A stretch of DNA of 46,314 nucleotides from Hydrurus foetidus (lineage: Eukaryota), in the NCBI GenBank assembly GCA_900617105.1, contig UYFQ01000293.1:1-46314 (forward strand), in the 5' to 3' direction. A program made the position numbers and the translations under genes. Below, one piece after another: positions 1,765-46,314 of this stretch. How positions within the stretch are numbered: position 1 is the stretch's first letter; every line of letters begins with the position of its first letter. The notes under the pieces are model-generated. The model had not been told where the DNA came from, searched no databases, and worked only from the letters and a program-made list of their open reading frames with translations.

Positions 1765-2343
1765 GTCATTTCCGTTAACAATTGAGGGCTTTTTCCTTAT
1801 TTCATAATTCTACTTTGCGGTTTCAGTTCTAGGCCGACAAGGATCAACACTGAAACAAAGTTCTGCTAAAAACAATTTTGTGTTTTCTGTTTTCGGAAAT
1901 CACCCGGTAAGGAACGGTCTAAATTTTGGATTTCTGTGTTGGTTTTGACGTCGACATTTTTCGTATATTATAGGCGATGTAAAAGAGTCGAGAGAGGTCA
2001 GTCAGCTGGGGACCTAGAACCTTGCTTTCTCCGATAATTCTACACCTCACATCTCTGAACCAACATGTAAAAGTTATCAGGAGTAAAGTTTAAAGAAAAC
2101 GTCTAATAGATGGATACGAGACAGACACGGCAGTCTTAAAAAAGGATCCAACTTTTTGTCGTCTCACGAAGATGTACTCTTGAAATGCCTATTACTCCTC
2201 AGCATATAGCACAGTAGAGAATACCTCTGAACTCCAGTTATAAATTCCTAAATAATAAGCATACAGTAGCAGCTATAGCCACTACTTCGCACCTTGGAAA
2301 GTACCATCACTACAGAAATCATCCAAATCATAGAGAGTATCTG

Positions 2344-2559
2344 TGTGATGGTACAGGATTTAGTACCACATTCCTACCCTCCGTAGTACCGTATAGCCGT
2401 CCGTACATGTGGCTGAGAGTCCTTCTGACCTCTCACAGACTGTTAGTTACCTTGCAACGCTTTGCATGCAGAGTTTTACACCTCTGCAAGCCCATCCCCT
2501 CTCTTTTCCGTTGTAAGCCTAACTACCTTTCTGCCTCTCCTAGCTTCATTTGGACTATA
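2344..2559 (+). repeat. 5' LTR (TG...TA)
   Basis: Starts TGTGATGGTAC and ends GGACTATA. Matches 9152-9367 except for 7 clustered substitutions. Confidence 0.93.
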
Positions 2560-3285
2560 GTAGATCTACTCGTTCCGCTTTCCCTTCTAAATTCTACTAC
2601 TTGGCCCCCTACTACCCATCCACCTATTTAGCTAGACTTCTGTCCACGCGGTCCACCGAGTTTTCAGAAGTCCTTCCAAAGCATTTGGTTGGAGAACTCA
2701 GGATTTGAGCAAACGTTGTCATTTCGACACGTTTCTCACGACTTGGCGCAATCGGTGAAACATAGGTATCCCCTATCTGAATTTCAACAGCCGATCAAGA
2801 CTCTCAAGCTCCTGAATCTCAAGAGCTTTCAAGATCTTCAAGGAGGCCTTTCAAGATCTTCACGGATTCCCGATTGCTATATCGGTTGCCAGCTCTAAGC
2901 CGTTTCGACGCCAGCTGAAGAACAGAAGTCAATACCTGTTTGACGCAACATAGGTATCCCCTATCTGAATTGCAAAAGACTTCGCGGGCAATCATCAGCA
3001 GGACTTCAAGCCTGTTCAAGACTCAAAGCAGCAACGCCTGCTCCTTTGGATTGGCCAACAGGAACCTGTTGGTGAGCCGAAGACCGGATCTCAAGTGCCA
3101 TTAGTCGAAGACCTTTGTTATTTTTCATCTGCTTTATTTGCTAACCCCATCGATCAGACACCTGTCCAACCGATACGGCACGAGGCAAACCTCTTGCAAA
3201 TTTTTTTCAAGAGGGAAAGATCTTAGAGGAATTTAACTAAGAAGCGCTCCGGTCAAAGCAGCCTGCTTAGCAGCTCTTCAGAAGG

Positions 3286-6200
3286 ATGACACCAGAGCAG
3301 CCACTTCCAACGCCCTCCCCTCCTCCAGAACCGGAATTATCAGAGGAGGAGATCAGGAGGTTTGCGGAAACAGGGAATACGGGACCTCCAAGCCCGGTTA
3401 ATGAACTAAACCTTTCATTAACAACACGGGGAGAAGAGACCCAGAACTCCCTGGCGTCATCGATAACCAAAGCTCTTTCTTTCAACAAGAAACTCTTTGT
3501 GTTACAGAACACTCTCATCAGCTCGGATCAAGCTGAGAGGTTCCTTGCGCAGGCCGTCACCATGGGCGACTCCATCGACATCCAGCAGACTATGACAGAG
3601 GCGGCCATGGACACACTGGACATGAAAATCCGGTGCGATCCGTCCCTAAAGGTCCTCAACAAGTCGGAGGTTTCCCTGTGGAGGACAAGACTGTCGCACC
3701 TTCAAATCGCTCGTCTTGTCAGCCAGTACTTTGGCAAGCGACACGATGAGAAGAAGACCCTGGCCGAGGTGTTCTCCAAAGTCAAGTTCCAGTACTGCAT
3801 CGATAACGAGGATCATGAGATACTGATGATGGCGGATTACAAGGAGGTCATCAAGGGGTACACCCGTACGGTGGGGGAGATCACTGAGGAACAACAGAGG
3901 GACCTCATCAAGATCTTCGAGAAGCGTGTCGCGGCGGAAGAGTCCCAGATCCGCCACGACTACTTCGACATGAAGAAGGCAGACAAGGTCGAGAGGATGG
4001 TGGCGTTCGTGTCGAACCCCAACAACCCTCAGACCGAAGACACCTGGTTGACATGCGTCTACAGGTTCTGCAAGACACTCGCAGTCGCACGCCAGGCGTT
4101 ATTCAAGGTGGCTCAGTACGGCGATACCTCTATCGTCCACACCTTCCCACCCACTAGCGTCAAGTCCACGGCATCAGCGGTAGGATGGTCTGGTCCCAGC
4201 AACTCCGCTGCGTCAGCCTCCTCTCGTTCGACGTCGGACCTAGTGCAACAAAGGAGCGAGCGCCGAGCGTACAGCACGGATCCGACTGAATGCCAGTGCT
4301 GCGGTTTCGCAACACACCGGGTTGCGGACTGCCCCTTCAAAGGCCTTCATGACACGAACAACCAGTACCACGTGTTATGGGGAGAGTCTGCGATGGGAAA
4401 GGCATGGATGGCTGAGGGTCATGACACCTTCGTAGAGCACCTGTATCTACCAGGATGGGAACTTCGTCGGAAGAAACGCGCGGAGGAGTCCTCAGAGGAT
4501 GCGGATACATCCAAGCGAGTCCGTTACAACAGTGAGTCTGAGGACGACCGTCCCGCGCGAGACCGACGCACGCTGCAGGAGCGGGAGAGAGACGACCGCG
4601 ATCTGAACGAACGCAAAGCACGCGAGCGACGCGCAGACCGTGGCCGTTCTTCCAACCGCGAACGCAGTCGTGACAGAGACGATGACCGCCGAGACAGTCG
4701 TAAGTACGACAACAAGAAGGGCGGCGGACAGGGGTCACGCCACAACAGGGCCAGGGGCAGCTCCCAGCCTAGGAGCAGTTCCCAACCAAGATCCAACAAA
4801 GGAAGTAAGTCTCTAGCTGCTGTAGACTCTGTCCATGCACTCGCGCCTGCATCTGACATTGTTGCTGCCATACAGCCGCTTACTGCGTTACCTGCACTTT
4901 CAGTTGTCTTACCCATCCCCGTACGTACGGACCTTGTACCCTCGGATGTGCAACCGCCCATCTCGACTAACCCGACTGATTACTTGTCTTGTAATATCTT
5001 TGCTGTACAGCGTAAAGACACGCAGGACGCGGTAATAGGACACTCGAAACAAGTCGAGGGGGATGCGCTGCTGGACACGGGAAGCTTTCCGGGGAATTTC
5101 ATTTCGCGTGACTGCTTAGTCAGAATGAATGCACTGCAGTACATTTACACCTCACCTGTTCCCATGACTGTATGCAGTGGCCTGGATCGCACCTGCTATC
5201 TGAGTGTCAATGTTGTAGACATAGGAATCATCTTTCAATCACACGATGATATTATACACACGGTGTACTTTACGGTTAACGTTAACCCAGACCAAGAAAT
5301 CGATTTAATTGTGGGTCGGACAACCCTAGCGCTAAATAATTTTAACATTTTGACACCATCCGCTTTGGGTTTCAAAGCACCGTCCGCACCACAACCGCCA
5401 CCTTTGGCAGCTAAAAAGCCCGTCTCGGCTAAACCGGATAAGCCCCCTAAGGATTACTCCCGTAAGACGGCCAAGGCGAAACCGCTTTCCTTTAAGGTGA
5501 TTGCTTCGACACCAGCTGTCGCTGACGCGGAGACGTTGCCAGCACGTACTCCTGAGAAGTTGAACCCCTCACAGCGCAAGAAAGCAGCAAAGGAAAGAGC
5601 GAAACTCGCGGAGAAAATGAAGGCTAAGTATGGTCCCCCACCATCTACCATAGACCATGTGGTTGCATCTTTGGTACCCGTCACCGACACTCAGCAGACT
5701 ATATGCTCGCCAGATTGTAAGTGTGCAGCCCACAACGGTCTTGCTAACCGCCCGGCTCGTGGCAACGAGGGTCGTCAGCTTCCAGGCAACGTAGTTGCTG
5801 CCTTGGCTGTACGTACGGACGATACACCGCGTCCGGGTGTCGACCTCCCTCACACCCCTTCGCACACACCACTTATAACAAGCGAAGATATTCTCCACCC
5901 TGTCTGCGTTAAGCCCAGTGGTATCATAGTCTCCGTTGATGAGATTGATAATGAGAAAGTCGACACTTTCGGTGCCTTCTTCAGCGACAACAAGGACCTT
6001 CATAGAGGGGAGGACGACACCAAAGCTTTCTTAGAGCAATTTGTGTTCGCGGGTAGTGAGACCCAAGTACACAGATTAAAAGATCTTGTCATGGAATACC
6101 GAGACATCTTCAGTGATGTACTCGCGGAAAGAGCCGCGGACTTAACCCCGTTCCGGTTTAATGTGGAGGAACCTCTGTGGGAGACCCCAGGGAACAGGAC

Positions 6201-8853
6201 CCCATGCCGACCCCAGTCGGTCAAGAACAACATCGAGATAGAGAAAGCTATCAAGACGATGCTTGCAGATGGCGTTATTGAGAAATCAAACGCATCTTAT
6301 TACAGTCACCCAGTGATTGTACAGAAGACAGAAGACAAAGTGCGGGTTTGCATCGACTACAGGAACCTCAACGATTGCATCAAGCCCGCCAGCTGGCCCC
6401 TCCCCAACATCCGTGGGCTCTTCGAAAGAATTGGACGCAACAAACCGACGGTGTTTGGAGTCATGGACCTAACGGCAGGATACCATCAGGCCCCACTATA
6501 CCCACCGCACCGTGTATTCACGGCATTCCTGTGCTTTTGCGGGCTATACCAATTTACCCGGCTACCGTTTGGACCTAAACGGGCCCCCTCCTACTTCCAG
6601 GAGCAAATGGTCACCAAAGTCCTTCAAGGTTTACTGTACGTCTCCTGCGAGATGTACTTGGACGACTGCATAGTGTATGCATCAGATGAAGATCAGTTCC
6701 TCACAAGACTGAAGGAGGTATTCCAGCGCTTCCGCGAGCGCGGCCTTCTGCTGAAGGCTAAAAAATGCAAATTTGGACTGCCCCAAATAGAGTATGTCGG
6801 GCGAGTCATCTCTAAAGATGGACTGTCTATGTCCATGGTCAAGATTAAATCGGTACTCAACTTTGAGAAACCGCGGAACCTTCACGCCCTAAGATCCCTA
6901 TTGGGACTGGCGAACTACTTTCGGGGATTTGTACCAAATCACTCCCTCATAGTAAAGCCGCTTCAAGATATGATTGACCACAAGGGCAAAAAGAACTCAC
7001 CACTGGTGTGGACACAGGGAAGTTCCGACGCGTTCCAGGCTATACGTAAAGCTATATCGCATTGCCCACTGATGCATTTCCTGGACGACAGTGACGCACC
7101 TATACGGCTGTATACGGACGCCTCCGACTACGGTATAGGCGGCGTACTATTCCAGATCGTTGACGACATTTGGCGACCGATATCTTTCGTCAGCAAGTCT
7201 TTCAACGCCACTCAATCTCGTTGGTCAACGATACAGAAGGAGGCATACGCAATCTTCCATTGCTGCCAGCAGATGGACACTCTCCTCCGCGACCGGGTGT
7301 TCACTATACACACAGATCACTTGAATCTGACGTATATGACCAACAACCCCAACTCGATGGTCACCCGCTGGTCCATAGCGATGCAGGAACTCGACTTCAA
7401 GATTCACTTCGTGCCAGGCTCCCAGAACAAATGGGCTGACACACTGTCACGCCTGTGCCCCAACCTTATGGAACTCGCCATGGATTACACCCCAAGGGTC
7501 ATGGACGCCCCAGGTTTTATTGTTGCGGCACTGACCACATGCCCTTTAGCTTCGGAGGAAGAACAGGAGTGGATGGAGCAGGCCCACAACTTCCGCGTCG
7601 GTCACGGCGGCGTAGACCGCACGATGCATAAGCTGGGCCTCATGGGCCATTCTTGGCCGTACATGCGCAACCACGTCCGGTTATTCGTACGGTACTGTCC
7701 GTGCTGCCAGAAGATGAGTGCGGTACGCATTCCCATCAACGTCCATAAGTTCACGACGGCAGGCGAGGTACTATTCGATGTCCTCAACATCGACTTCATC
7801 GGTCCATTCCCCGACGGCACACACGTGCTAGTCATAGTGGACTCATTCTCAAGATGGACGGAGCTGTTCCACTGCAAGGACAGCACGGCAGAGTCAGCAT
7901 GCCGCTGTCTCTTGGAACACTTCGGTCGTTTCGGTTCTCCCAACCTGATACGCTCCGACCGCGGACCACACTTCGCCAACGAACTAATAGAGAAATTTCT
8001 CTTGGCGGTTGGAACACCGCACAACCTCACACTAGCCTATTCGAAGGAGGAGAACTCCATCGTGGAGCGGGTCAACAAGGAGGTGAATCGCCACTTGCGC
8101 TCGTTTGTGTTCGAGACACTCGAGATGGACCAATACAAGCTTTGCCTCCCCTTTGTCCAACGGATCATGAACAGCTCGGTTCATGGCTCCACGGGAGTGT
8201 CACCGGGTAACCTGCTCTTCGGCAACCGCTTGGATCTGAACAGAGGCATCCTCACGCCCTTTCAACCGGCCCTTCCAACTAAGACTCCGGGCTCACGCAT
8301 CATGGCTGACATGATTAACGCTCAGGATACGACGCACAGGACAGTCCAAGAAATGGCGCAGGAACACGCGGCACAGCGCTTAACGGATCAGCCGGATCCA
8401 ACCGTTTTCCCTGTCGGTTCGTACGTACTGGCGCAGTACGCTACAGGTCCCCCTACGCGACTACACACACGATGGCAAGGTCCGATGGAGGTGATTTCCC
8501 ATCGCGATTCGGAGTATGTACTCCTGAACATCGTCTCTAAGAAGACTAAAAGAATCCACGCTTCCAAACTCAAGATATTCCTATTCGATCCAGCGAGGAT
8601 CGAACCCATGGACTCAGCCCGACGCGACTACATGGAGTTTTACATCGAGGCGATCACTGCCCACAAGGGCAACACCAGGAAGGTCTCCACGTTGACCTTC
8701 CTCGTCAAATGGCTTAATTATAGCGAGGAGCACAACTCATGGGAGCCATGGAGTGCTCTGAGACTCACGGACCAGCTACACACCTACCTCAAGAGCGCCG
8801 GACTGAAGGCGCTGGTTCCGCACAACCTGCGTGGCGAAGATATACCGGTGTGA
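3286..8853 (+). CDS. Gag-Pol polyprotein: Gag, CCHC knuckle, aspartic protease, RT, RNase H, integrase, chromodomain
   Basis: 1855-aa ORF. Motifs: CQCCGFATHRVADC (CX2CX4HX4C); LLDTGS protease; RVCIDYRNLN, LPFG and YLDD in RT; TDASDYGIG in RNase H; integrase HHCC plus DFIGP/SDRG/VER; GPY/F-like WQGPM; C-terminal FLVKWLNYSEEHNSWEPW chromodomain. Domain order is gypsy-type. Confidence 0.98.
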   Translation: MTPEQPLPTPSPPPEPELSEEEIRRFAETGNTGPPSPVNELNLSLTTRGEETQNSLASSITKALSFNKKLFVLQNTLISSDQAERFLAQAVTMGDSIDIQQTMTEAAMDTLDMKIRCDPSLKVLNKSEVSLWRTRLSHLQIARLVSQYFGKRHDEKKTLAEVFSKVKFQYCIDNEDHEILMMADYKEVIKGYTRTVGEITEEQQRDLIKIFEKRVAAEESQIRHDYFDMKKADKVERMVAFVSNPNNPQTEDTWLTCVYRFCKTLAVARQALFKVAQYGDTSIVHTFPPTSVKSTASAVGWSGPSNSAASASSRSTSDLVQQRSERRAYSTDPTECQCCGFATHRVADCPFKGLHDTNNQYHVLWGESAMGKAWMAEGHDTFVEHLYLPGWELRRKKRAEESSEDADTSKRVRYNSESEDDRPARDRRTLQERERDDRDLNERKARERRADRGRSSNRERSRDRDDDRRDSRKYDNKKGGGQGSRHNRARGSSQPRSSSQPRSNKGSKSLAAVDSVHALAPASDIVAAIQPLTALPALSVVLPIPVRTDLVPSDVQPPISTNPTDYLSCNIFAVQRKDTQDAVIGHSKQVEGDALLDTGSFPGNFISRDCLVRMNALQYIYTSPVPMTVCSGLDRTCYLSVNVVDIGIIFQSHDDIIHTVYFTVNVNPDQEIDLIVGRTTLALNNFNILTPSALGFKAPSAPQPPPLAAKKPVSAKPDKPPKDYSRKTAKAKPLSFKVIASTPAVADAETLPARTPEKLNPSQRKKAAKERAKLAEKMKAKYGPPPSTIDHVVASLVPVTDTQQTICSPDCKCAAHNGLANRPARGNEGRQLPGNVVAALAVRTDDTPRPGVDLPHTPSHTPLITSEDILHPVCVKPSGIIVSVDEIDNEKVDTFGAFFSDNKDLHRGEDDTKAFLEQFVFAGSETQVHRLKDLVMEYRDIFSDVLAERAADLTPFRFNVEEPLWETPGNRTPCRPQSVKNNIEIEKAIKTMLADGVIEKSNASYYSHPVIVQKTEDKVRVCIDYRNLNDCIKPASWPLPNIRGLFERIGRNKPTVFGVMDLTAGYHQAPLYPPHRVFTAFLCFCGLYQFTRLPFGPKRAPSYFQEQMVTKVLQGLLYVSCEMYLDDCIVYASDEDQFLTRLKEVFQRFRERGLLLKAKKCKFGLPQIEYVGRVISKDGLSMSMVKIKSVLNFEKPRNLHALRSLLGLANYFRGFVPNHSLIVKPLQDMIDHKGKKNSPLVWTQGSSDAFQAIRKAISHCPLMHFLDDSDAPIRLYTDASDYGIGGVLFQIVDDIWRPISFVSKSFNATQSRWSTIQKEAYAIFHCCQQMDTLLRDRVFTIHTDHLNLTYMTNNPNSMVTRWSIAMQELDFKIHFVPGSQNKWADTLSRLCPNLMELAMDYTPRVMDAPGFIVAALTTCPLASEEEQEWMEQAHNFRVGHGGVDRTMHKLGLMGHSWPYMRNHVRLFVRYCPCCQKMSAVRIPINVHKFTTAGEVLFDVLNIDFIGPFPDGTHVLVIVDSFSRWTELFHCKDSTAESACRCLLEHFGRFGSPNLIRSDRGPHFANELIEKFLLAVGTPHNLTLAYSKEENSIVERVNKEVNRHLRSFVFETLEMDQYKLCLPFVQRIMNSSVHGSTGVSPGNLLFGNRLDLNRGILTPFQPALPTKTPGSRIMADMINAQDTTHRTVQEMAQEHAAQRLTDQPDPTVFPVGSYVLAQYATGPPTRLHTRWQGPMEVISHRDSEYVLLNIVSKKTKRIHASKLKIFLFDPARIEPMDSARRDYMEFYIEAITAHKGNTRKVSTLTFLVKWLNYSEEHNSWEPWSALRLTDQLHTYLKSAGLKALVPHNLRGEDIPV

Positions 8854-9129: not shown

Positions 9130-9151
9130 GGGAAGGAGTAAGTGGGGGTAA
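9130..9151 (+). promoter_or_regulatory. Polypurine tract (plus-strand primer site)
   Basis: GGGAAGGAGTAAGTGGGGGTAA directly 5' of the 3' LTR. Confidence 0.85.
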
Positions 9152-9367
9152 TGTGATGGTACAGGATTTAGTACCACATTCCTACCCTCCGTAGTACCGT
9201 ATAGCCGTCCGTACATGTGGCTGAGAGTCCTTCTGACCTCTCACAGACTGTTAGTTACCTTGCAACGCTTTGCATGCAGAGTTTTACACCTCTGCAAGCC
9301 CATCCCCTCTCTTTTCCGTTGTAAGCTAAACTACCTTTCTGACACCTCTTGCTTCATTTGGACTATA
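9152..9367 (+). repeat. 3' LTR (TG...TA)
   Basis: Direct repeat of 2344-2559, followed by the TSD TCTG. Confidence 0.93.
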
Positions 9368-10113
9368 TCTGCTACACCAGGTGAGGCACTTCTAACGATT
9401 ATGTATCAATATATGATTCATCAAGTGAATCGGCTAGTGGGCATAATAAAATGTTCAAATACGTCGAAAATTCACTGTATTTATGAAAAAAATCCTATTA
9501 TTTTGCGACTCCACCTCTCAATTTCGACAAATAATTACGGAAAGTAGTTATTTAATGACTTCAAAATTGCCGAGATTTACAGAAATAGAGAGTACGAATG
9601 CTGAATACCTATTGCAGAGGAATGTAGATAGTATCGAAACTGATAGAGGAGTGGTAAAATGATCAAGCATATAAATGAACATGAAAATTGTTTTATTTAA
9701 CACAGGACAATCTGCAGCAGATTGTATGCTACACACAACTTATAATTGAGATTTTTATGACTCTATCGGCAAAAATTTCGCGGTAATGTAGTCATATAAT
9801 AGAAAAAAGGAAAAAGACAAAGAAACTTGAGGTACCCCACAAGACACAAGACGAACGGAAGAACCACCAGGATACCGTATACCGTATACTGTATACTACG
9901 GTATAAACTGTGCACTGTACGTTGTACGTCACCAGTCACCAATCTCCTGCACAAAGTTTGTCACCAGTAGAATAGTTGCCATTTACCATCCTTATTACAG
10001 GGTACACCTGTGAGCAGTTCGCGCAGCAACTGACAAATTCTGAATCCAAAGCGGCGGCTATGAATTTTTGATAGGCAGAAGAAAGCGTGTAAGACAATAA
10101 TCTGATAAGTACC

Positions 10114-23499: not shown

Positions 23500-26122
23500 A
23501 TGATGACCATATTCGGCGCATTGATTTTCGTCTTAATCATATTCGAGGTCGCCCCGGTTCTTCCACCCGAAAATCTTGAGAATGGGAGAACAGATCATAG
23601 ACTCGAGCTCGCCACGGCTGAAAAGCACTCGTTCGCTAACACGGGGGTCGATAAAACAGGGTACAATTTTTCCTGTAGATAGTGATTCAGCGCTGACACT
23701 TACTTCACTGCAACTCCATCATGGTCAATCAATGACATATGTGATCTTATTTTCGTTCAGGGCTACACCTACAGAGATATCGAAGACAGTTCTTACAAGA
23801 GAAATCACTTTCTCAACAGCGCAGAAGCCAGCGGCAGCCGCTGCTTTGTCTACAGTGCAAGCCACCATCACGACTGTCGCTGGAGGTGCTGTGGCTGGCA
23901 GAGGTGGAGACGGAGGTCAAGCGACATCATCACAACTGAACAACCCTGTAGCCGTCACTATCGATGCGTCCCGCAACATCTACATCGTGGACACGAATAA
24001 TGACATCATCAGAATGGTAGCCAAGAGCACCGGCATCATCACCACCGTGGCTGGTAACGGACAGAGAGGGTTCGGTGGGGACGGAGGTCAAGCGACGTCA
24101 GCTCAGTTAATGTCTCCTCGAGGTGTTGTAGTGGATGCATCTGGCGACATGTACATTGTTGATACTGACAATAATCGCATTCGCAAGGTGACGAAGAGCA
24201 CCGGTGTCATGAGTACTGTTGCTGGAACTGGACTGGGCGGATTCAGTGGGGACGGAGGTCAAGCGACGGCAGCCAATTTGTGGCATCCTCGAGATGTTGC
24301 ATTAGATGCATATGGCAACATCTATATAGCTGACCTTGGAAATCGTCGCATTCGTAAGGTGACCAAGAGCACGGGCATCATCACTACTGTAGCTGGTAAC
24401 GGACAATATTTGCTCAGTGGGGATGGGGGTCAAGCGACATCTGCAGTAATAGGGTTGCCTCTAAGCGTCGCCGTAGATGCATCAGGCAACATCTACATAG
24501 CTGATTACTATAATCATCGTATTCTCAAGGTGACGACGAGCACGGGCATGATCACTACTGTGGCTGGTAACGGACAGGCCGGCTACAGCGGCGACGGAGG
24601 TCAAGCGACGCTAGCGAAATTGCTTAACCCTGAAACTATCTTCGTAGATTCATCAGGCAATATCTACATTTCCGACAAAAGTAACACCATCAGGATGGTG
24701 ACCAAGAGCACTGGTATCATCAGCACCGTAGCTGGAAGCGGATCATCTGGCTTCAGTGGAGATGGAGGAGTGCCCGGATCGGCGCAACTGAACAGTCCTC
24801 TAGGCATCGCAGTAGATGCGTCAGGCAATATTTACATCGCTGATACTGGTAATAATCGTATTCGGATGGTGAGGTCAGACGCATTGACAGCAGTACCCAC
24901 ATCATCACCTACAATGAGTCCGACATCATCACCTACAATGAGTCCGACATCATCACCTACACTAAGTCCAACAAGACAACCCACGTCAATACCATCAAAA
25001 AAGCCAACAAAGAGACCGACGAAAAGACCGACAGTTCATCCTACAAAAAAGCCATTCCCCGTATCAAAAGTAATGATTACTACTGTCGCTGGTAGTACTA
25101 GGGTTGGCAGAGGTGGAGACGGAGGTCAAGCGACATCATCACAACTGAACAACCCTGCAGCTGTCGCTGTAGATGCGTCCGGCAACATCTACATCGCGGA
25201 CACGCGAAATTACGTCATCAGAATGGTGGCCAAGAGCACCGGCATCATCACCACCGTGGCTGGTAACGGACAGTACGGCTACAACGGGGACGGAGGTCAA
25301 GCGACGCTAGCTCAGTTGAAGTACCCTGTAGGTGTTGCACTAGATGCATATGGCAACATTTATATAGCCGACCCTGAAAGTTGTCGTATTCGCAAGGTGA
25401 AGAAGAGCACCGGCATCATCAGCACTGTAGCTGGCAACGGACGGAATGGCAATGAAGGTGGTGGAGGTCTAGCGACATCTGCATCTCTAGCCTGGCCTCA
25501 AGGCATCGCTGTCGATGTATCAGGCAACATCTACATAGCTGATACCAGTAATCGTAGTATTTTCAAGGTGACCAAGAGCACGGGCATCATCACTACTGTA
25601 GCTGGTAACGGACAATATGGGTACAGCGGGAACGGAGGTCAAGCGACATCTGCAGTAATAGGATCGCCTGTAAGCGTCGCCGTAGATGCATCAGGCAACA
25701 TCTACATAGCTGATTATTATAATTATCGTATTCGCAAGGTGACCAAGAGCACCGGTGTCATCACTACTGTAGCTGGTAACGGACAGAAGGGGTTCCGTGG
25801 GGACGGAGGTCAAGCGACGCTAGCTCAGTTTAATGATCCTCGAGGACTCGCTGTTGATTCATCAGGCAACATCTACATTGCCGAATCTGACAGCAACATC
25901 GTCAGGGTGGTATCCAAGAGCACTGGTATCATCAGCACTGTAGCTGGAAGCGTATTCAGTGGTGATGGAGGAGTGCCCGGATCGGCGCAATTGAACAGTC
26001 CTCTAGGCATCGCAGTTGGTGCGTCGGGCAATATTTACATCGCTGATACTGGTAATAATCGTATTCGTAAGCTTGATCATGTCGCGCCTGCACCTGCCAC
26101 TACAAAAAAGCCATCAGCATAG
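23500..26122 (+). CDS. Secreted NHL-repeat protein: two 6-bladed beta-propellers joined by a Pro/Thr/Ser-rich linker
   Basis: Proposed exon 1 at 23500-23660 (hydrophobic leader MMTIFGALIFVLIIFEVAP), GT-AG intron 23661-23760 with compatible phase, exon 2 at 23761-26122. Twelve ~56-aa repeats GDGGQATxAQLxxPxGVAVDASGNIYIADxxNxRIRKV in two blocks of six. Linker (PTSSPTMS)n followed by KKPTKRPTKRPT. Confidence 0.85.
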
Positions 26123-29362: not shown

Positions 29363-29893
29363 TTTCAGAAGAAACTATGCCATGTGGAGCTGTGATAGTG
29401 ATAGAGATATGCTGTTCGTCAATTGTCTGTTCGTCAATAGTTCTTTTTTCCGTTAGAGTGAGGGGTTGGAGAACATCTATTGCGCGACATAATGATGTCC
29501 TGAAATTCGAGATTGCTCATCTGCTACCTTCCGTTAGTTCAATTATAAAAAAAGACGTCATCACAACTCCACAACTCATATCTTCGATGACACACAAATC
29601 AAATCCCGCAAAACTCTCTCTCTCGCAACTTAAAACTTCGTACACAGATGCAAATACAGTTTATGGTTTTTTTCGTATGCTTTTTTCGTAGTACGTTTTT
29701 TTCGCAGCTTTTAAATGGTATGCTCTCAGTTCGTAACTTTCACTTAATATCTCCCGTCAAATAACTCTTACTTCGGATCTCCCTATCAATATCTTCTCTT
29801 TTTATATCTCCCACTTATATCAATAACGTCTCTACCACCTAAGTTGATTATTTTTGATTTTTTTTTGTTTGAAAATTTCAAATGACTTTAGAT

Positions 29894-30400
29894 GTAGATG
29901 TCACAGTAGATGTCACTGTAGATGTCACTGTAGATGTCACTGTAGATGTCACTGTAGATGTCACTGTAGATGTCACTGTAGATGTCACTGTAGATGTCAC
30001 TGTAGATGTCACTGTAGATGTCACTGTAGATGTCACTGTAGATGTCACTGTAGATGTCACTGTAGATGTCACTGTAGATGTCACTGTAGATGTCACTGTA
30101 GATGTCACTGTAGATGTCACTGTAGATGTCACTGTAGATGTCACTGTAGATGTCACTGTAGATGTCACTGTAGATGTCACTGTAGATGTCACTGTAGATG
30201 TCACTGTAGATGTCACTCTAGATGTCACTGTAGATGTCACTGTAGATTTAGAAGTCAGAGTAGATCACAGAAGATGTCACTGTAGATGTCACTGTAGATA
30301 TCACTGTAGATGTCACAGTAGATATCACGGTAGATGTCACTGTAGTTATCAATGTAGATGTCACTGTAGATGTCACAGTAGATGTCACTGTAGATGACAA
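29894..30400 (+). repeat. 12-bp tandem array (GTAGATGTCACT), ~29 near-perfect units then a degenerate tail; left arm of the MULE
   Basis: Near-perfect 12-bp periodicity at 29894-30241, degenerate to about 30400. Confidence 0.95.
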
Positions 30401-31017
30401 TGTCGATGTATATATCAATGCCATTGTAGATGTTAATGACGAGGTCAATTACACATCCACATTCCTCGTACTCATGATCATATTAGCATTCATGTCCAAC
30501 ATGTTCGTATCGATCATCCATCTTTATCATAGACATGAATATATAGATCATACTCAAGTATATCTTTATGTACTTCATGTTCATAAGTTTGATTTATTAC
30601 GTTTCACTCCAGGTTGATTTCGATGCTGAATTTTTTATTAGATTACAGAAGCAGATATCGATCCTGAATATTATTTATTGAACTGTATCATTGGCTGTTC
30701 GGTATGACTGTTCATATTGAGATCTGTGTATCTAAAATATTTTCCAGTAAATGCGTTGTAAATTCTGGCATCTAATTTTATACGCCATGAATACGCAGTT
30801 ACCGAGACAGCTATCTTTTGACCATTTTGAAAAGTTGACTCGTAATGAATTAATCGATATCTTATGAATCCTACCTCGTGGACTCAAAGCAGTAATTGGA
30901 ATGACCAACTAAACACAGAGACAAACTTACTTAAAGTACAGATGAGCTAACATTGTACTGAATAGCAGTCAATTGGTTGGACACATACTATTCTTTTAGA
31001 TTTGCTAGCGAGGTTTC

Positions 31018-32752: not shown

Positions 32753-32952
32753 CGTTCACTATGATTTGTTATGGGATGATAAAAACCAAAAAATATAAAT
32801 AACGCATTGACTTAATCTTGCGATCACAATGTGCATGAAAGTTTGGAACACTTCTCAACCAAAAAAGAGTAAAATTCATTGTAAAGTTAACGCAATACTA
32901 AAGCAATATTGTAAAGCAGTTTAATATCTTTCTTTATACTTCAGAGCTAACT

Positions 32953-33141
32953 ACTGTGACATCTATAGTAACTTCTACAGTGAGATCTACAGTGAGATAA
33001 ACATCTACTGTGCCATCAACATCCACATCTAAATCAGCATCTACAGTGACATCTGCAGTGACATCTACAGTAACTTCTACTGTGACATCTACAGTAACTT
33101 CTACTGTGACATCTACAGTAACTTCTACTGTGACATCTACA
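32953..33141 (-). repeat. Inverted, degenerate copy of the 12-bp array; right arm of the MULE
   Basis: AGTGACATCTAC-type units, partly arranged as a 24-bp dimer GTAACTTCTACTGTGACATCTACA. Confidence 0.85.
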
Positions 33142-33537
33142 TCTAAAGTAATTTGAAATTTTCAAACAAAAAAAAATCAAATATAATCAACTTAGGTGGT
33201 AGAGATGTTATTGATATTAAGTGGGAGATATAAAAAGAGAAGATATTGGTAGGGAGATCCGAAGTAAGAGTTGTTTGACGGGAGATATTAAGTTAAAGAT
33301 ATTAAATGAAAGTTATTAAGCTGGTGATATTAAGTGAAAGTTATTAACTGGGGTACATTCTTTTAAATAGAATATAAATACGAATATTGAGATATTCTGT
33401 ATTTATACCGTAAATAAGAAACAATTAAGTAACAAGTAATTTTTTGCATTGGCATCTTTTTGTCGTGATGCAGAGAGTCTGAAAATATTGCATCTTGATA
33501 AGACTCCCCACAATAGAGTGTCGGTTTTAGTCACAAT

Positions 33538-35605: not shown

Positions 35606-35799
35606 GGCATCCATTATCTACATCGACATATCACATTGGTGAAACCCTTCGAATATTTGATAGAATCTCTACCATGTTAGACATCAAGTAAACGCAATCT
35701 TTGACTGACGCAACATCTGATCGAAAAAATTATTGGAAGCAGGAACACGATCAGCTCCTGAGGATCTGCAACTTATCGCTCTCTCATCTACATAGTATC

Positions 35800-38775
35800 A
35801 TGTTCTACGTTAGTGGGTCGCCTTATCGCTTCATATCACTAAGAGTGATATATGCGGTGATGATTTTGTCATCTTTACAGTACCATGCTATGGCTGAAAA
35901 GATCAACACACATTCCTTTGAGCCTCCGTTTCAGGACATAGATACTTCAGGAAGCAGAATGGTTTCTAACTACTGGCGTGGATCGGGCTCCACAACAGTG
36001 AACAACAATTTTGCACGACTCACACCTGATCAGCAGAGCAAGAAGGGATCGCTGTGGTCTAGAGAAGTCCTCGACGTTCCTTCTTTCTCAACCATTCTAA
36101 AATTCAGAATAAGTGGGAAGGGTAAAGATCTTTTCGGAGATGGGATGGCTATCTGGTTTGTTCAGCAGGGATATTATATTGAAGGAGACCTACATGGATT
36201 TCAGGATGATTTCGTGGGAATCGGAGTAGTCTTTGATACTTTTAAGAACTCAGAACATCTAGATTCTCATAGGGATGTCACTGTTCTCATCAATAACGGT
36301 GAGAAAACATGGGAAATGATGACAGAAAGCGTGGAGGTATGACTGAAACCTTGAATTGCCGTCTGCGTAAAATTCACCGTAAATATCCACCAATACTACA
36401 CATTATTCATCTGGTTGTTTATATAACTACCCCATTCATCGAATGATGTACTGTCTCAATTGATGGCAGTCGGATTTTTTTATCTCTATTTGTCTACAAT
36501 CATTTATGCATGCATCTTTTACGATTCGTGTTGGCTAAATTCACAGGAATACCATCATCGTCGTCATCCAGATGTATCATGTAAAGTCTGAAGACACTCC
36601 CTATCACGATGAACGTTCCACTGTACCAATGACACAAGATTCACAATATTGCCTATTGTAATATTATACATAACTGTCACTTCTGCGCTACAGAGATGTC
36701 ACACTTTTCTAAACTGATATTACAAGTACATCACCTTCAATACTTTCAAGGGATGTAACACCCAAGTACGGTATCACAGCGACCGTGCTGATTTCAAAGT
36801 CACTGATGCGTCAGCAGCAAAAATTATCATCGATAATAGAGAGTAAGTCTTCCACTGTATAAAAATGATTCCTACCACATTGACATTGTATATGACAGAT
36901 TGGAAATTTCAGAAATAAAGATTAAATATTCTAGACTGTGATGGGAAGACAGTGTTGAGAAATGTGTTTAGCGATGTCGATATTGTTCTCATCTGATAGC
37001 GCTTCTTTTGTTTTAATACTTTATCGTCTGCTCATCAAATCTTTTTCTCATCTTCACTTCTCACTCCTCTTTCAATGCAGTCTAAGAATATGAGTTGACT
37101 CAATGACCTCAGAAACGATCACATTTTCATCATTATTTTTCTAATTTTTATCCGTTATTCTTTCCACACAGTTTGACAATATTGATTGATGCACGCAACA
37201 CGGGTGAATGGACTCCATGCGTTAAATTAAAGAGTATCGATTTACCCGAATTCTGGGCGGTGGATTCGTACATCGGACTGTCATCTTCAACGGGACAACT
37301 GTCAGGTTATTCCATTTTATTTATCGTGTATCATTATCTTCTCCTTTTCTTCCTTTTTTCAGGCCCTTTTTCTCACTCACTTCCGCCTTTTTTCCCCGCC
37401 TTCATCTCCTTTTTTTCGTTTTCTTTTTCTCTCTCTTCCGTAGACAATCACGATGTGATATCACTCGTTACCTATGTCGATGCGGACGTCATGGAGAAAG
37501 CCGAAAATGCCAAAACAAAACGCGTTTTATTCGAAGTTGCTCCTGCTAACGTCTCTGATGATGAAAGAGTGAGAAGGTATTCAGTACTATCAAAGGGCAC
37601 TGAGTGATTTGCAATTATTTGCATTACTTTCAATGATTCTTTTTCGTCTCTCCTTTTCACATTATTCATATGTCACTAAAATCATTGATTTATTTTTCTT
37701 CTTTGATTTATTTTTCTTCTTTCAGATTAGAAGAAACGATAAATAAAATCATGAATAAAATGGAATATATGGATCATCACTATGAGCATCATTTCGTGAC
37801 AAATAGCGATAATATTGATCACGTTAAAGCTAAATTGGACGATAAAGAAGATTCTGCTCTTCATAGAATAGATGAACTTGAGGGATTGGTGAAAAAGGTT
37901 CGTTTTTTATTTCACGTTTTTCGCAATTTCTAATATGAATATATTTCTTGCATTTTTTCCACTGCCCAGTATTGCGTTTCTCGTCTTGATTTTTGAGTTT
38001 CAAATAAGACAAGTTCGAGTCGATGGGTGAATTCAAAATGCAGCATATAGATAGGATCGAAATTACTGATATGCACTGAATTATTAATGATGAGATCATC
38101 TATTGAGTAAAATAGATTTTTAATTCAACCTTTAATTCTGATACTGCTGTGTCACCAAGTATATCTAATACTACATAACCACTCTATAATATTACAAAAT
38201 CCTCAAGTATTGAATTCGAGTAAATACCCCTCAAGCTGCCGTGAATATGTTCCGCATTTTATGTGATTAAACGTGGAAATCGTATATAGCTAAACAACTA
38301 GAAGCCACTGAGAATTGCGATATTTTACCTGTATTCTGTTCAATTCAATTTAGATTTAAATTTAGATTTAGGTGACACATTTTTTTGATTCTAAATGATG
38401 GAACATAATTGTGACGATGATGATTAATCCACTTACCCTAACTAAATTGTTAGCTCAACATAACATGTGGAAATAATCTAAACAATCTTTGCTACTTTGA
38501 CATTGTTCGTTCGACAGGAAGTAGGCACTGCGCTTGGAGAAAGAATGGACACAATGGAAAATATTCTCAAATCAAAAATGAACAAAAAAATAGAAAAATT
38601 TGAAGGAAAAATTGATGATCTGTTTTCCACTCCGGAATGGAAAGAAAAAAATAAATATTCAGGAGGTGGAAGTTGGCGATTACCATTTGCGTTTTTGCTT
38701 TTTTTAATGGTAGGTGGATGTGGTGGTGTTTATTATTTTTATCGAAAACTATTGAGAAAAATGCACCTACCATAA
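35800..38775 (+). CDS. L-type (legume-like) lectin cargo receptor, VIP36/ERGIC-53 family, 6 exons
   Basis: Signal peptide; HSFEPPF; RLTPDQQSKKGSLWS; FRISG..LFGDGMAIW; GIGVVFDTFKN; YIGLSSSTGQLSDNHDVISL; coiled stalk; TM segment WRLPFAFLLFLMVGGCGGVYYFY; tail RKMHLP. Exons about 35800-36336, 36751-36842, 37172-37285, 37444-37576, 37726-37897, 38518-38775. Confidence 0.9.
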
Positions 38776-40161: not shown

Positions 40162-40986
40162 TCATTGTTTCTTTGTCAATGTCAACTCATACATAACAGC
40201 TGCTCCGCCTGGGATGAAAGGAGCGAGACCTTCGTCTCCGAAAGCAAGATAGGCAGGAATGACTGCTTTTCTCCTCATATTGTAATTCATGCCTTTCATC
40301 GCTTCCTTCAGCCCATTCAATGGAACGTCTTTAAAATTGGAATTCTCCACTGTGTATACCTCTTGGTATTTTCCGTCTTCCAAGCACTGGAATGTTAACA
40401 TATTACTCTCGCTTTTGTTGATCTGCAACCCATTATAGAACAACTTGGCAAGTAGCATCATCTCATCTCCTCTCTTCGGTGCAGCAATTGACTCCTCAAT
40501 CAGAATATTTGAGTCTGATTTCGACACAGTCGGTTGAAGATCAGTGTACTGAATTCCGTTCGACATGATGGTAGGAGCCATGTTATTTCTGGCGGCGTCG
40601 ACTTTTTTGCTGTAGTCAAACTTATCCGCCATTTCCTTCATGCGAATATTTAGAGAGAGGTATAGTACTGCAGCTGACACTACTATTTTTGCAAGCTCTT
40701 TCCGCGATTGGGCCTGAGTGCTAATTGGAACTGAAGATACGAAACCAGGACTTCCGATCAGACCTTTGTTTAGCTCATCGATTTCGTATGGATTTAGTGA
40801 AGAAGTGACAGAATTTGTTGCCATTTCATTTCGGTTCAGTAGATTGTAGTAGTCTTCGTTTGCGCTCATACGAGTCCCCGTTGTGAATGACTGTGAAGAC
40901 CATCGTGAAGGGAGAAAAGCATCAACTGGATAGTTGCTGATGGTGAAGGTGGAAATGAGTGCCAATAGAATACTTCGGTGCAGCAT
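40162..40986 (-). CDS. Plastid-targeted FKBP-type peptidyl-prolyl isomerase-like protein
   Basis: Signal peptide, ASAFAP-like VDAFLP motif and Ser-rich transit peptide. C-terminal FKBP signature GLKEAMKGM...RKAVIPAYLAFGDEG...IPGGAAVMYELTL. Single exon. Confidence 0.85.
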   Translation of the reverse strand: MLHRSILLALISTFTISNYPVDAFLPSRWSSQSFTTGTRMSANEDYYNLLNRNEMATNSVTSSLNPYEIDELNKGLIGSPGFVSSVPISTQAQSRKELAKIVVSAAVLYLSLNIRMKEMADKFDYSKKVDAARNNMAPTIMSNGIQYTDLQPTVSKSDSNILIEESIAAPKRGDEMMLLAKLFYNGLQINKSESNMLTFQCLEDGKYQEVYTVENSNFKDVPLNGLKEAMKGMNYNMRRKAVIPAYLAFGDEGLAPFIPGGAAVMYELTLTKKQ

Positions 40987-41209
40987 TTCTCAGCGGTCGT
41001 TATGATGAGATAGAGATTCCCACAGATTTCAGATCCGAACACTTTTAATGATGTTGAAAACGTGTGTTACTGTTGAGAGCTGACAGCGAAGCTCTTGAGC
41101 ATAAGCACCTCTGTTCTCTGTTCTGCCCAGCTATGGACCTGTAGTAAGTACGGGTACGTGCGCGCACATGCGTATATCGTACGTTGATGCGTAAGTACGT
41201 TTCTATCTA

Positions 41210-41662: not shown

Positions 41663-42635
41663 TATCTGCTTTTCCACTGTGTTTGTATTACAGTATAGTC
41701 TATGTGTGATAGTGATAATTGTAGTGTATCCAACGATTCGCGTTTCAGCGGAGCTATTTTTAATTTAAGTCCGCTTACAGTAGTCAGTATAGCTTATCGC
41801 GCACTCAACTAATGCAGTTCACTTATGGCATCATGACCTCTCGACACATCTTAGTAGGGTCCGACGCAATACTTTCGGGATAATCCACTATACCCGATCA
41901 AATAAGAACCAAAAATTTCAACTTGATGTTAACAAACCCCGATTGAAAATTGATTGCTCCTTGGTTGCCAGAAGTGGAGCGTCTAGATGAGACAGAAAAA
42001 ACGAATTACCCATCGAATCACAACGCTAATCGAATTCATGACCTATTTGATGACACTTTCGACTGTTTATCATACGGAGAGAACTTTATGATTGCTTAAG
42101 CGCTGTTCAAAAATTATTCCATCCCTGTTCTACTTGTTAAATCATGGCCTTGATACTTTTCTGGCGTAAATATGATTTTCCTGACTTAATCCTTCATCTT
42201 AAACATTCGCAGCTTTTATTATTTTTTCGCAAGGTCCTTCTTCAAGAAATTTCTTGTCCAGCAGAGGAGACACATCATAATGTTGGCAATATGTGATGCA
42301 GTAATGATGTACTGAAAATAAATCTAACATGGACTCAACAGTTTGGAGTTTGGACTCGGTATACGTACAGTGTCATTGTACATCAGTAGTCAGTAGTTAG
42401 TACGCACTTCTTTTGTGTTTGTGGCAGCTTAGTCCCCTAAGAGCTATTTCTTCTCGTGGGGGATGACGATTGTATAATTCACCTGAAAGGGGGGTCGAAA
42501 CCCGAACTATGAAGTACGCACTTTTTCTTCTTCTGCATACGCACTTGTTCTGAGTACACACTTCCCATTTTCGACACAATTGTGTCGAAAATGGGCTTGC
42601 CGTATTTCGGTCGGAGGTATACCGAATAGTATAAT

Positions 42636-44356: not shown

Positions 44357-46314
44357 TGTAGCCATATGCCATTTAGTATGGCATTATGAGCTTCTAGGAC
44401 TATCGGTCTACAGATCGGTCTACAGGGTCGTAGGCTTCCAGCCTCACCCTTACAACATGTACTCTGCTATCATCTAGCTAGTCCACGTAGAAGTTACCCT
44501 AGCTACGGCTTTCCCCTGTAACTAAGACTTCAGCTCCTCTCCTTTCCTTCCTCTCTTTTGCCATTCGGACTACAATAGATCTATTCCGTCCACTCTTCTT
44601 TAGCTAATACCTCCGACTTCTACCTCTCCTTCCCGATACGCCACCTCCAGATCCCAGCCTCTGTCGACAGAGACGCGGACTCGAGTAAGCCTTCGTGGAT
44701 AAGTCTTTTTCGTTACTTGAAATCTATCTCAGCGATTAAGTTCGTCTGCAGACGATTTCTCTGGGGACTTTTACCGATCACAACTTGGATCCTCGAAGCT
44801 TTCGAGTTTGAGCACTTTCCAGTTAATTCTAGATCGTTTTGCACGATTGCCAAGGGTTAGTGAGCAACGTTAAATCGTTTTCTCGCCTCAACTGTGCTTG
44901 GTTGGCTTTAAATAGCTATTCTCACCGAGATTTTTGACACGTCAAAAATCTCGACTTCTCACCATATGCCTGCTTCGTTTCTAACTGCCTGCTGTTGTTT
45001 CCAAGGTTTTCTACCTTACAACACAGGGGGGAAACTCTGGCAAAAAAATTTCCAGAGTTAACTCTCTTCAGAAACAATTTTGACAGTAATATCTCTTAAA
45101 CCATATCAGGCTTAATTGCTTGATATGTCGAGCGGCTCTTCTAACACTGATCCCACCTCGGGAATATTGCTCCTGATGGCTTTCAAACAGCATCGGGTAG
45201 ATTGCGTCAACAGCAATCACAGTCGAGTAATTCTTCGACAAATCAACGCTCGGGTTCATCACCGATAGCATTCGATAATCGTCGTTCGCAGGGTTCATTA
45301 CCTGACAATGTACGTCGCTCTCAGTCTTCGACTGTTCAATTACAACAACCTTTGTTCGTATTGAAAGGGCCGCACATCTCTCCTGAAGAAGCTGTTCTGT
45401 TTAAGACACAGGCAATACGTGTCCCTGACACTCCGATAAATGAGGTGACGACTCTACAGACGTTTCGCCTCATCGATACAGTTATAAAATCTGATATCGA
45501 CTTCATGGACTATGACGATGATTTCTTCATGCATTGGTCAGAGCAAATGTCTTTAATAGATATTGCTGAAATTGTCATGAAGCATTTCGGGGAGAAAATA
45601 GACATGGGTAAAACTCTGAACCAAGCGTTCAATGAGATCCCATTTTGCTATTCCCTTGATGACAATTATTATGAGCTAAACAGTTCACAAAAAATGGACG
45701 ATTTACTCTATAATTATGTCTCAGCTGGTAACGAGGTTACAGCAGAACAAGAGCGTGAACTAATAATTTCGCTCGAGAAACGTTTAGAACACGGAAATCA
45801 AATTAAAATTGATTATGTTGCAGCAAGAGGAAGTAACACAACTCTTCGTGACGACACTTTTATGCAATGCAAACGTCGCATAATGCTCGTTCTGGCATCT
45901 GCTCGTAAGAAAATTAATGAGGTGAAAATGTATGGTAGTATCGACAAGATCTACTCATCACCTATACCGGCTATAATGCCGTTTAACCCTAACCGTCAAC
46001 CGCAAATAAAACTTGCGACGCGTGATCCGGTTACTGGCCAATCTACAGCAAAACAGATTCTGGCGAAACGTACAGATAGTACAGCAGTACCACCATTAGC
46101 ACGGTCTGCATGCTGCCGCTCTTGCGGAAGTGACGAACATATCCTAACGGATTGTCCTGTCCTTTACTGGTCTGACACCAATACAGATCACCACATCGAT
46201 TGGATTAACTCTAGAGTGGGTAAACTATGGGCTCAGCAAGGCCATAAAAAGCGTATGCCTGAACTCATTTTACCGGGTTATGAAAAATTACTTATTACTT
46301 CAACCGTTGGGTAC
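44357..46314 (+). mobile_element. Second Ty3/gypsy element of the same lineage (5' LTR, leader, gag), running off the window
   Basis: Putative 218-bp LTR at 44357-44574 (TGTAGCC...GGACTACA), whose 3' end CATTCGGACTACA resembles CATTTGGACTATA of element 1. Gag is homologous to element 1. The 3' LTR is outside the window, so LTR limits are inferred. Confidence 0.85.
45125..46314 (+). CDS. Gag (partial), probable 1-nt frameshift near the N-terminus
   Basis: Frame +1 is open from 45151 to the window end (missed by the ORF track). PLFVLKG, HFGEKIDMGKTLNQAF, EVTAEQERELIISLEKR, CRSCGSDEHILTDC and LWAQQGH...LPGYE align with element-1 KLFVLQN, YFGKRHDEKKTLAEVF, EITEEQQRDLIKIFEKR, CQCCGFATHRVADC and AWMAEGH...LPGWE. 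The ATG at 45125 is in frame +2. Confidence 0.85.

Follow-up and report, generated by a model that had tools for sequence, protein, structure and literature searches.

A perfect palindrome at the primer-binding position of a clade of Ty3/gypsy retrotransposons, and possible priming in trans between two RNA genomes

LTR retrotransposons and retroviruses prime reverse transcription with whole tRNAs, tRNA halves or, in the Tf1/sushi group, the 5' end of their own transcript, and minus-strand synthesis must begin at the LTR edge, which sets the LTR end. A contig of Hydrurus foetidus (UYFQ01000293.1, positions 1 to 46,314 of the forward strand; the whole stretch of 46,314 nucleotides is referred to as the window) raises the question of how reverse transcription starts in two LTR elements that carry a palindrome where a primer-binding site (PBS) would be expected. 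The original prediction took the palindromes for the mark of a possibly undescribed priming mode, operating through either a fold-back or an intermolecular duplex. The features of the two elements are as follows.

2340..2343 and 9368-9371, forward strand: target-site duplication TCTG (4 bp) of element 1
2344..2559, forward strand: 5' LTR of element 1 (216 bp, TGTG...GGACTATA)
2512..2516, forward strand: TGTAA motif, 48 nt upstream of the end of the element 1 5' LTR
2559..2570, forward strand: 12-nt perfect palindrome AGTAGATCTACT at the primer-binding position of element 1, from the last A of the LTR
3271..8853, forward strand: single ORF of element 1, 1860 aa from stop to stop
9130..9151, forward strand: polypurine tract of element 1 upstream of the 3' LTR, assigned from its sequence
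9152..9367, forward strand: 3' LTR of element 1, whose 7 differences to the 5' copy are confined to 24 nt
44357..44574, forward strand: 5' LTR of element 2 (218 bp, TGTAGCC...GGACTACA)
44574..44585, forward strand: 12-nt perfect palindrome AATAGATCTATT at the primer-binding position of element 2
45151..46314, forward strand: Gag frame of element 2, cut by the end of the window

The ORF of element 1 encodes Gag with a CCHC knuckle, protease, RT, RNase H, integrase and, at the integrase C-terminus, a chromodomain (PF00385, aa 1792-1838, E 8e-8). The catalytic motifs are present and the RNase H motifs are intact; Atlas matches were to zinc-knuckle clusters only, under 0.9. The LTRs, the target duplication, the polypurine tract and the order PR-RT-RH-IN are those of a Ty3/gypsy element, and the integrase comes after RT-RH, which is not the domain order of copia. 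The chromodomain alone does not settle membership in the chromoviruses because the oomycete Chronos elements gained theirs independently (PMC5348765).

The 4-bp target duplication was found in element 1 and in a member of the same clade (L045). Contigs of other element 1 copies part from the window directly after ...GGACTACA, and in those with loose ends at 2344 an identical polypurine tract precedes the LTR. The duplications and the divergence of the contigs directly after ...GGACTACA thus identify 2559 as the last LTR base. The LTR ends of element 2, of which the 3' LTR lies beyond the window, were set by a terminal inverted repeat and by the likeness of its U5 to that of element 1. Both 12-mers were found where they had been predicted, each being its own reverse complement and beginning on the final A of the LTR (by the duplications and contig breaks in element 1, by the U5 likeness in element 2), and the compensatory change between them was borne out, the symmetry being kept in both. 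The two elements had also been claimed to be too diverged to align as DNA. This held only beyond the junction, where no significant DNA likeness between the LTR-leader regions was detected, while 33 nt around the junction do align (79%, E 0.003), which indicates that conservation between the two elements extends to the end of U5 and to about 10 nt of leader. Their Gag sequences are 27% identical.

As predicted, no TGG was present within 8 nt after the LTR in either element, and neither LTR contained a complement of the site longer than 7 nt with G-U pairs allowed. Elsewhere in element 1, the best partner for the site was a single 9-nt match with G-U pairs in the RT region, and no exact second copy of the site was found. 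No tRNA gene was detected within the window.

We collected homologues by an RT-RNase H search, in which 539 proteins scored E 1e-20 or lower, the listing covering the 120 best of them, and by an alignment of 24 polyproteins, which led to 12 loci in viral contigs, 79 in metagenomes and 30 in genomes; Gag profiles yielded 22 further loci, several of them duplicates, from bacterial bins. The clade that includes the window elements comprises 76 loci. The LTR-leader junction was visible in 25 of them, and the other 51 are duplicates, chimeras or, going by where the ORFs and tracts lie, loci with their start or end within the element. A perfect palindrome starting from the final A of the LTR was found at 25 of the 27 junctions (25 loci and the two window elements), although a scan for palindromes was what first drew attention to several of the sites, a possible source of bias. 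The length was 12 nt in 22 junctions, 14 nt in one (L025) and 10 nt in two (L045 and L115). Of the remaining two, L023 keeps a 10-bp core inside an outer pair mismatched as A-C, and at L041 a palindrome in register is unclear. Among the 26 sites that could be placed, 18 different sequences and 11 central tetramers occur, and all of these sites, also those of 10 and 14 nt, start at the last base of the LTR. The palindrome of element 2, AATAGATCTATT, recurred identically at the junctions of L047 and L122. The LTR end was set by a second LTR copy or by the flank in element 1, L016 (through L015), L031 and L045, and was called in the remaining cases from TG...CA termini between the tract and the Gag start. 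Two loci with an LTR after the integrase, followed by a short unassigned sequence (L028 and L029), were left uncounted.

Palindromes of this kind are rare elsewhere. Among the other CA/TA sites within 260 nt, 1 of 1566 begins a palindrome of at least 10 nt, and none of the 14 outgroup junctions was palindromic. Of the 6365 CA/TA sites in the window, 9, the two junction sites included, begin a palindrome of at least 12 nt, and the chance of two matches at both window junctions is about 2e-6. In a 41-row tree of RT-RNase H, unrooted and containing no named references, all carriers were found on one side of a branch (22 versus 19 rows, 96/91), where L041 and the junction-less L026 were also placed and L045 formed a long branch; the second tree was a quick one of 95 rows, likewise free of named references.

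Several further observations were made on these loci. The apparent start codon of Gag lies within the palindrome in L037 (positions 55-66), and a subgroup of L037, L031, L043 and L045 has very short LTRs of 78-104 nt. Small bacterial bins hold contigs of these eukaryotic retrotransposons (L092-L116, L119 and L122-L143), which is likely binning contamination by eukaryote DNA.

For covariation, 18 of the 26 sites were aligned, leaving out two contig-end and two minus-strand loci, one near-duplicate and three length variants. In this alignment, 107 of the 108 cells pair, 30 double-sided changes stand against no single-sided one, and five of the six pairs covary without any G-U pair. No shuffle out of 500 reached the observed covariation score and slid controls were only 36-54% paired, both comparisons being inflated by the relatedness of the sequences and by a structure drawn from the same sequences. 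The centre of the site is its most variable part, with 11 tetramers, yet it is symmetric. L020 and L030, which are 99.05% identical over 4546 nt, have the centres TTAA and TCGA, respectively, and L023 and L024 (76% identical) have CTAG and CCGG. Altogether, the palindrome is a real, clade-wide and strongly covarying feature. The homologues bear out the covariation at the LTR junction and the conservation in further families on which the original prediction depended: what is kept across the clade is symmetry, not sequence.

Such covariation means that selection acts on the symmetry itself, and this speaks against explanations by host RNA. A primer supplied from outside, namely a tRNA half or other small RNA from the host, or a small antisense RNA from the element, has a precedent in some copia lineages that are primed by tRNA halves (PMC6317226). 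No single host RNA, however, could fit 18 sequences, two of which occur in one window and two in elements 99% identical to each other, and a primer of this kind needs no symmetry. We thus regard an outside RNA as very unlikely. A DNA-binding site for a dimeric protein was ruled out by reasoning because the sequence is free and the symmetry alone is kept.

The known priming modes were compared with the sites in 25 of the 26 placed sites, L115 being left out. A TGG PBS was found in none of the 25, while the control L120 has a TGG site. Self-priming of the Tf1 type by the transcript 5' end is common among chromodomain gypsy elements (PMC4600332, PMC6317226, bioRxiv 10.1101/2022.12.06.519325), and L025 has an LTR complement of 10 nt, consisting of A and T only. 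In the other 24 of the 25 sites, by contrast, the best LTR complement spans 5-8 nt with G-U pairs allowed (the LTRs of L047, L129, L138 and L013 being incomplete), whereas seven of eight distant control elements, scored alike, have a complement of 10-11 nt as in Tf1. The viral contigs contained distant elements only (12 loci) and served as controls. Ordinary Tf1-type priming therefore appears extremely improbable in this clade. Flanks for a Tf1-type three-duplex structure were weak and inconsistent. A downstream hairpin of the type known in fungal GalEa elements was rejected as well, as the best downstream match averaged 5.68 of 9 against 5.74 by chance over 25 sites; the match to the GalEa hairpin partner was at the chance level in 24 of the 25, and L032 matched 8 of 9. 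In a distant compact gypsy-like clade (L056:8694, L088:8412, L091:2626, L061:2157 and L072:326), the 5' LTR is followed by ATTTA... and neither TGG nor a palindrome was seen; in L088, a weak hairpin is possible from the last A of the LTR.

The simplest reading would be that two genomic RNAs pair at the palindrome. As minus-strand synthesis must start at this position, we infer that one RNA would be cut at the 3' edge of the palindrome and prime the other. The primer of Tf1 is reportedly made by RNase H cleavage of an RNA duplex, as described by Levin in 1996. We thus propose that two packaged RNAs pair through the palindrome and that one of them is cut to act as the primer, the palindrome being both site and primer, and assign to this proposal, which is built on sequence comparison, a probability of roughly 55%. 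Priming would proceed in five steps. First, an RNA-RNA duplex of 10-14 bp would form between the two genomes. Second, the RNase H domain of RT would cut in a Tf1-like manner after +11 or after +10. A cut after +11 would leave the last U of the primer opposite the final A of the LTR, which this U may supply, as is suggested by the palindrome starting on that A; the outer mismatch of L023 points instead to a cut one base earlier. Third, the cut would have to be one-sided, so that the other RNA retains the site as the template. Fourth, RNase H would take away the leftover R-U5 arm of the primer, whose sequence is complementary to that of the new cDNA. Fifth, if plus-strand DNA copies the primer, the same symmetry would be required of the DNA at the second strand transfer. 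Only a palindromic site would allow the copied primer tail to pair with the minus strand, and from a single mutation its mirror image would arise and then the double change. This requirement would explain both the strict Watson-Crick pairs and the fast double changes. The fifth step is not general, since neither Ty3 nor Ty1 inherits its PBS from the primer (PMC5371799, section 2.2).

The fifth step would also let a fold-back primer account for the symmetry. If the RNA were cut after the palindrome and primed itself in cis through a 4-bp hairpin, the symmetry would be needed later, at the second strand transfer, and both the central covariation and the absence of G-U pairs would be accounted for too. 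Weak pairing between U5 and the leader could help such a hairpin (mean z -0.44 and combined z -2.1, from 24 sites that are not independent). The hairpin itself is, however, never the predicted minimum: its predicted energy ranges from 0 to +2.9 kcal/mol and the monomer was predicted to be unfolded at all 26 sites, while the predicted self-duplex ranges from -6.8 to -19.5 kcal/mol over the same sites. The stem would be mostly A-U, and the 10-nt variants would leave 3 bp. We consider the fold-back quite improbable. Of the two forms allowed in the original prediction, the intermolecular duplex is thus favored over the fold-back by the predicted energies, and also because the central pair covaries yet cannot form within a hairpin; the priming, the cutting and the dimerisation themselves are proposals.

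Against priming in trans, several sites consist entirely of A-T pairs and are predicted to form weak duplexes (-6.8 kcal/mol), L023 has the outer A-C mismatch, L041 shows no clear palindrome there, and L025 has the LTR complement. Moreover, the same covariation is expected if the palindrome serves dimerisation alone. In that case it would be a dimerisation or packaging signal like Ty1 PAL and retroviral dimer sites, with another primer or site being used. Palindromes do mediate Ty1 dimers and a 12-nt palindrome of the tRNA has been proposed for Ty3 (PMC4974528, PMC5371799), and a dimer site needs exactly what is seen here, full symmetry with free sequence. A signal for dimerisation only, on the other hand, gives no account of a register locked to the last base of the LTR across the 26 placed sites with their length variants. 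It would also occupy the very place where minus-strand synthesis must begin, and once paired it would keep another primer out; the search for a different primer site gave none in the LTR, nor an exact second copy of the site in element 1. Dimerisation alone is therefore unlikely in our view, and priming in trans is preferred.

The nearest known counterpart of the site is in the fungal GalEa copia elements, described in 2017, in which a 9-bp sequence becomes palindromic once the final A of the LTR is added and is followed by a hairpin partner (PMC5445492). In that work, the palindrome was proposed as the PBS and was said to fit no known model; the work is cited in connection with bivalve TRIMs (PMC6934838). 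The suggestion that the mode is possibly undescribed has thus to be narrowed, as a palindrome on the final A of the LTR in place of the PBS was already published, while that description came without a mechanism. GalEa and the present clade are alike in lacking a tRNA PBS and an LTR complement and in a palindrome of which the final A of the LTR is part (PMC5445492). GalEa is nevertheless of the copia type and the present clade of Ty3/gypsy. The GalEa palindrome is 10 nt long with two sequences in 85% of families, in contrast to mostly 12 nt and 18 sequences here; a downstream CHSeq2 closes the hairpin in GalEa, in contrast to downstream matches that are on average at the chance level here; and the target duplication is 5 bp in GalEa, compared with 4 bp in two copies here (PMC5445492).

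The Tf1/sushi elements (S. pombe Tf1, Tj1, Tosmo and Tcn1) resemble the clade as tRNA-free Ty3/gypsy elements with a chromodomain and a site abutting the LTR (PMC4600332, PMC6317226, bioRxiv 10.1101/2022.12.06.519325), and in both the primer is expected to come from the RNA of the element itself. The Tf1 primer is the transcript 5' end acting in cis within a 'pretzel' of three duplexes, whereas the present site is its own complement. Skipper of dictyostelids is also a gypsy element with a chromodomain, with neither TGG nor an LTR complement and with its priming left unexplained, but it has a degenerate polypyrimidine tract instead of a palindrome (PMC5006619). In the dimerisation of Ty1 through PAL and of Ty3 through the tRNA palindrome, two molecules likewise pair palindromically near the start of reverse transcription; there, however, a tRNA still acts as the primer, with the palindrome located in that tRNA or at another place (PMC4974528, PMC5371799). 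A literature search that covered few subscription journals found no report of a palindromic PBS in Ty3/gypsy or of priming between two genomes. Descriptively, the finding is a variant of the GalEa site from a different superfamily, while the mechanism proposed for it would be new. Whether priming in trans, with dimerisation and priming joined in a single event, is a further start mode of LTR elements that arose independently in this gypsy clade and in GalEa copia, with the copying of the primer keeping a drifting site symmetric, we put at even odds from the sequences compared.

The GalEa palindrome has been an exception without explanation since 2017, and priming in trans is directly testable by genetics, for which element 1, being intact, is usable as a test system. 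If the proposal is true, these elements would be independent of the host tRNA supply and might escape silencing by tRNA fragments at the PBS, and annotation tools based on the PBS would miss or misfile them.

The family of element 1 is abundant and variable in contigs of four runs, and its contigs were found in biofilm, sediment, freshwater and glacier metagenomes; one run, guessed to be of RNA, gave 4 contigs over part of the leader only. The positions variable in the family flank the palindrome (2536-2542, 2558, 2582 and 2585), and no variant at 1% or more was listed for 2559-2581 in the contigs of the four runs, which drop rare variants. Both LTRs of the window copy end in TA while the family ends in CA, with T>C at 2558 in nearly all of the contig depth. 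Copies with a TA end were seen in three separate lineages (window 2558 and 9366, L013:6 and L099:373). Judging from the TA at both LTRs and the clean 4-bp duplication, the integrase of element 1 apparently took the TA end. The two LTRs are 97% alike, and their 7 differences all lie at 2519-2542 versus 9327-9350. The 3' LTR version of this 24-nt variable stretch is present in other copies, and the clustering suggests conversion or recombination rather than age. The TGTAA at 2512..2516 is a possible polyadenylation signal; 13 of the 26 sites have the motif no more than 130 nt from the LTR end.

Outside the two elements, the window contains two 12-nt tandem arrays in opposite orientation (29797-30440 and 32934-33217), which are about 85% complementary, lie 2.7-3 kb apart and adjoin a 299-nt exact direct repeat (33538 and 35307). 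The forward strand encodes an NHL-repeat protein at 23537-26122, in which repeats of 171 nt and a spacer rich in Pro and Thr occur, and a legume-like lectin domain at 35692-36342; an FKBP domain is encoded on the reverse strand at 40162-40989. A 32-nt perfect palindrome is located at 42564-42595.
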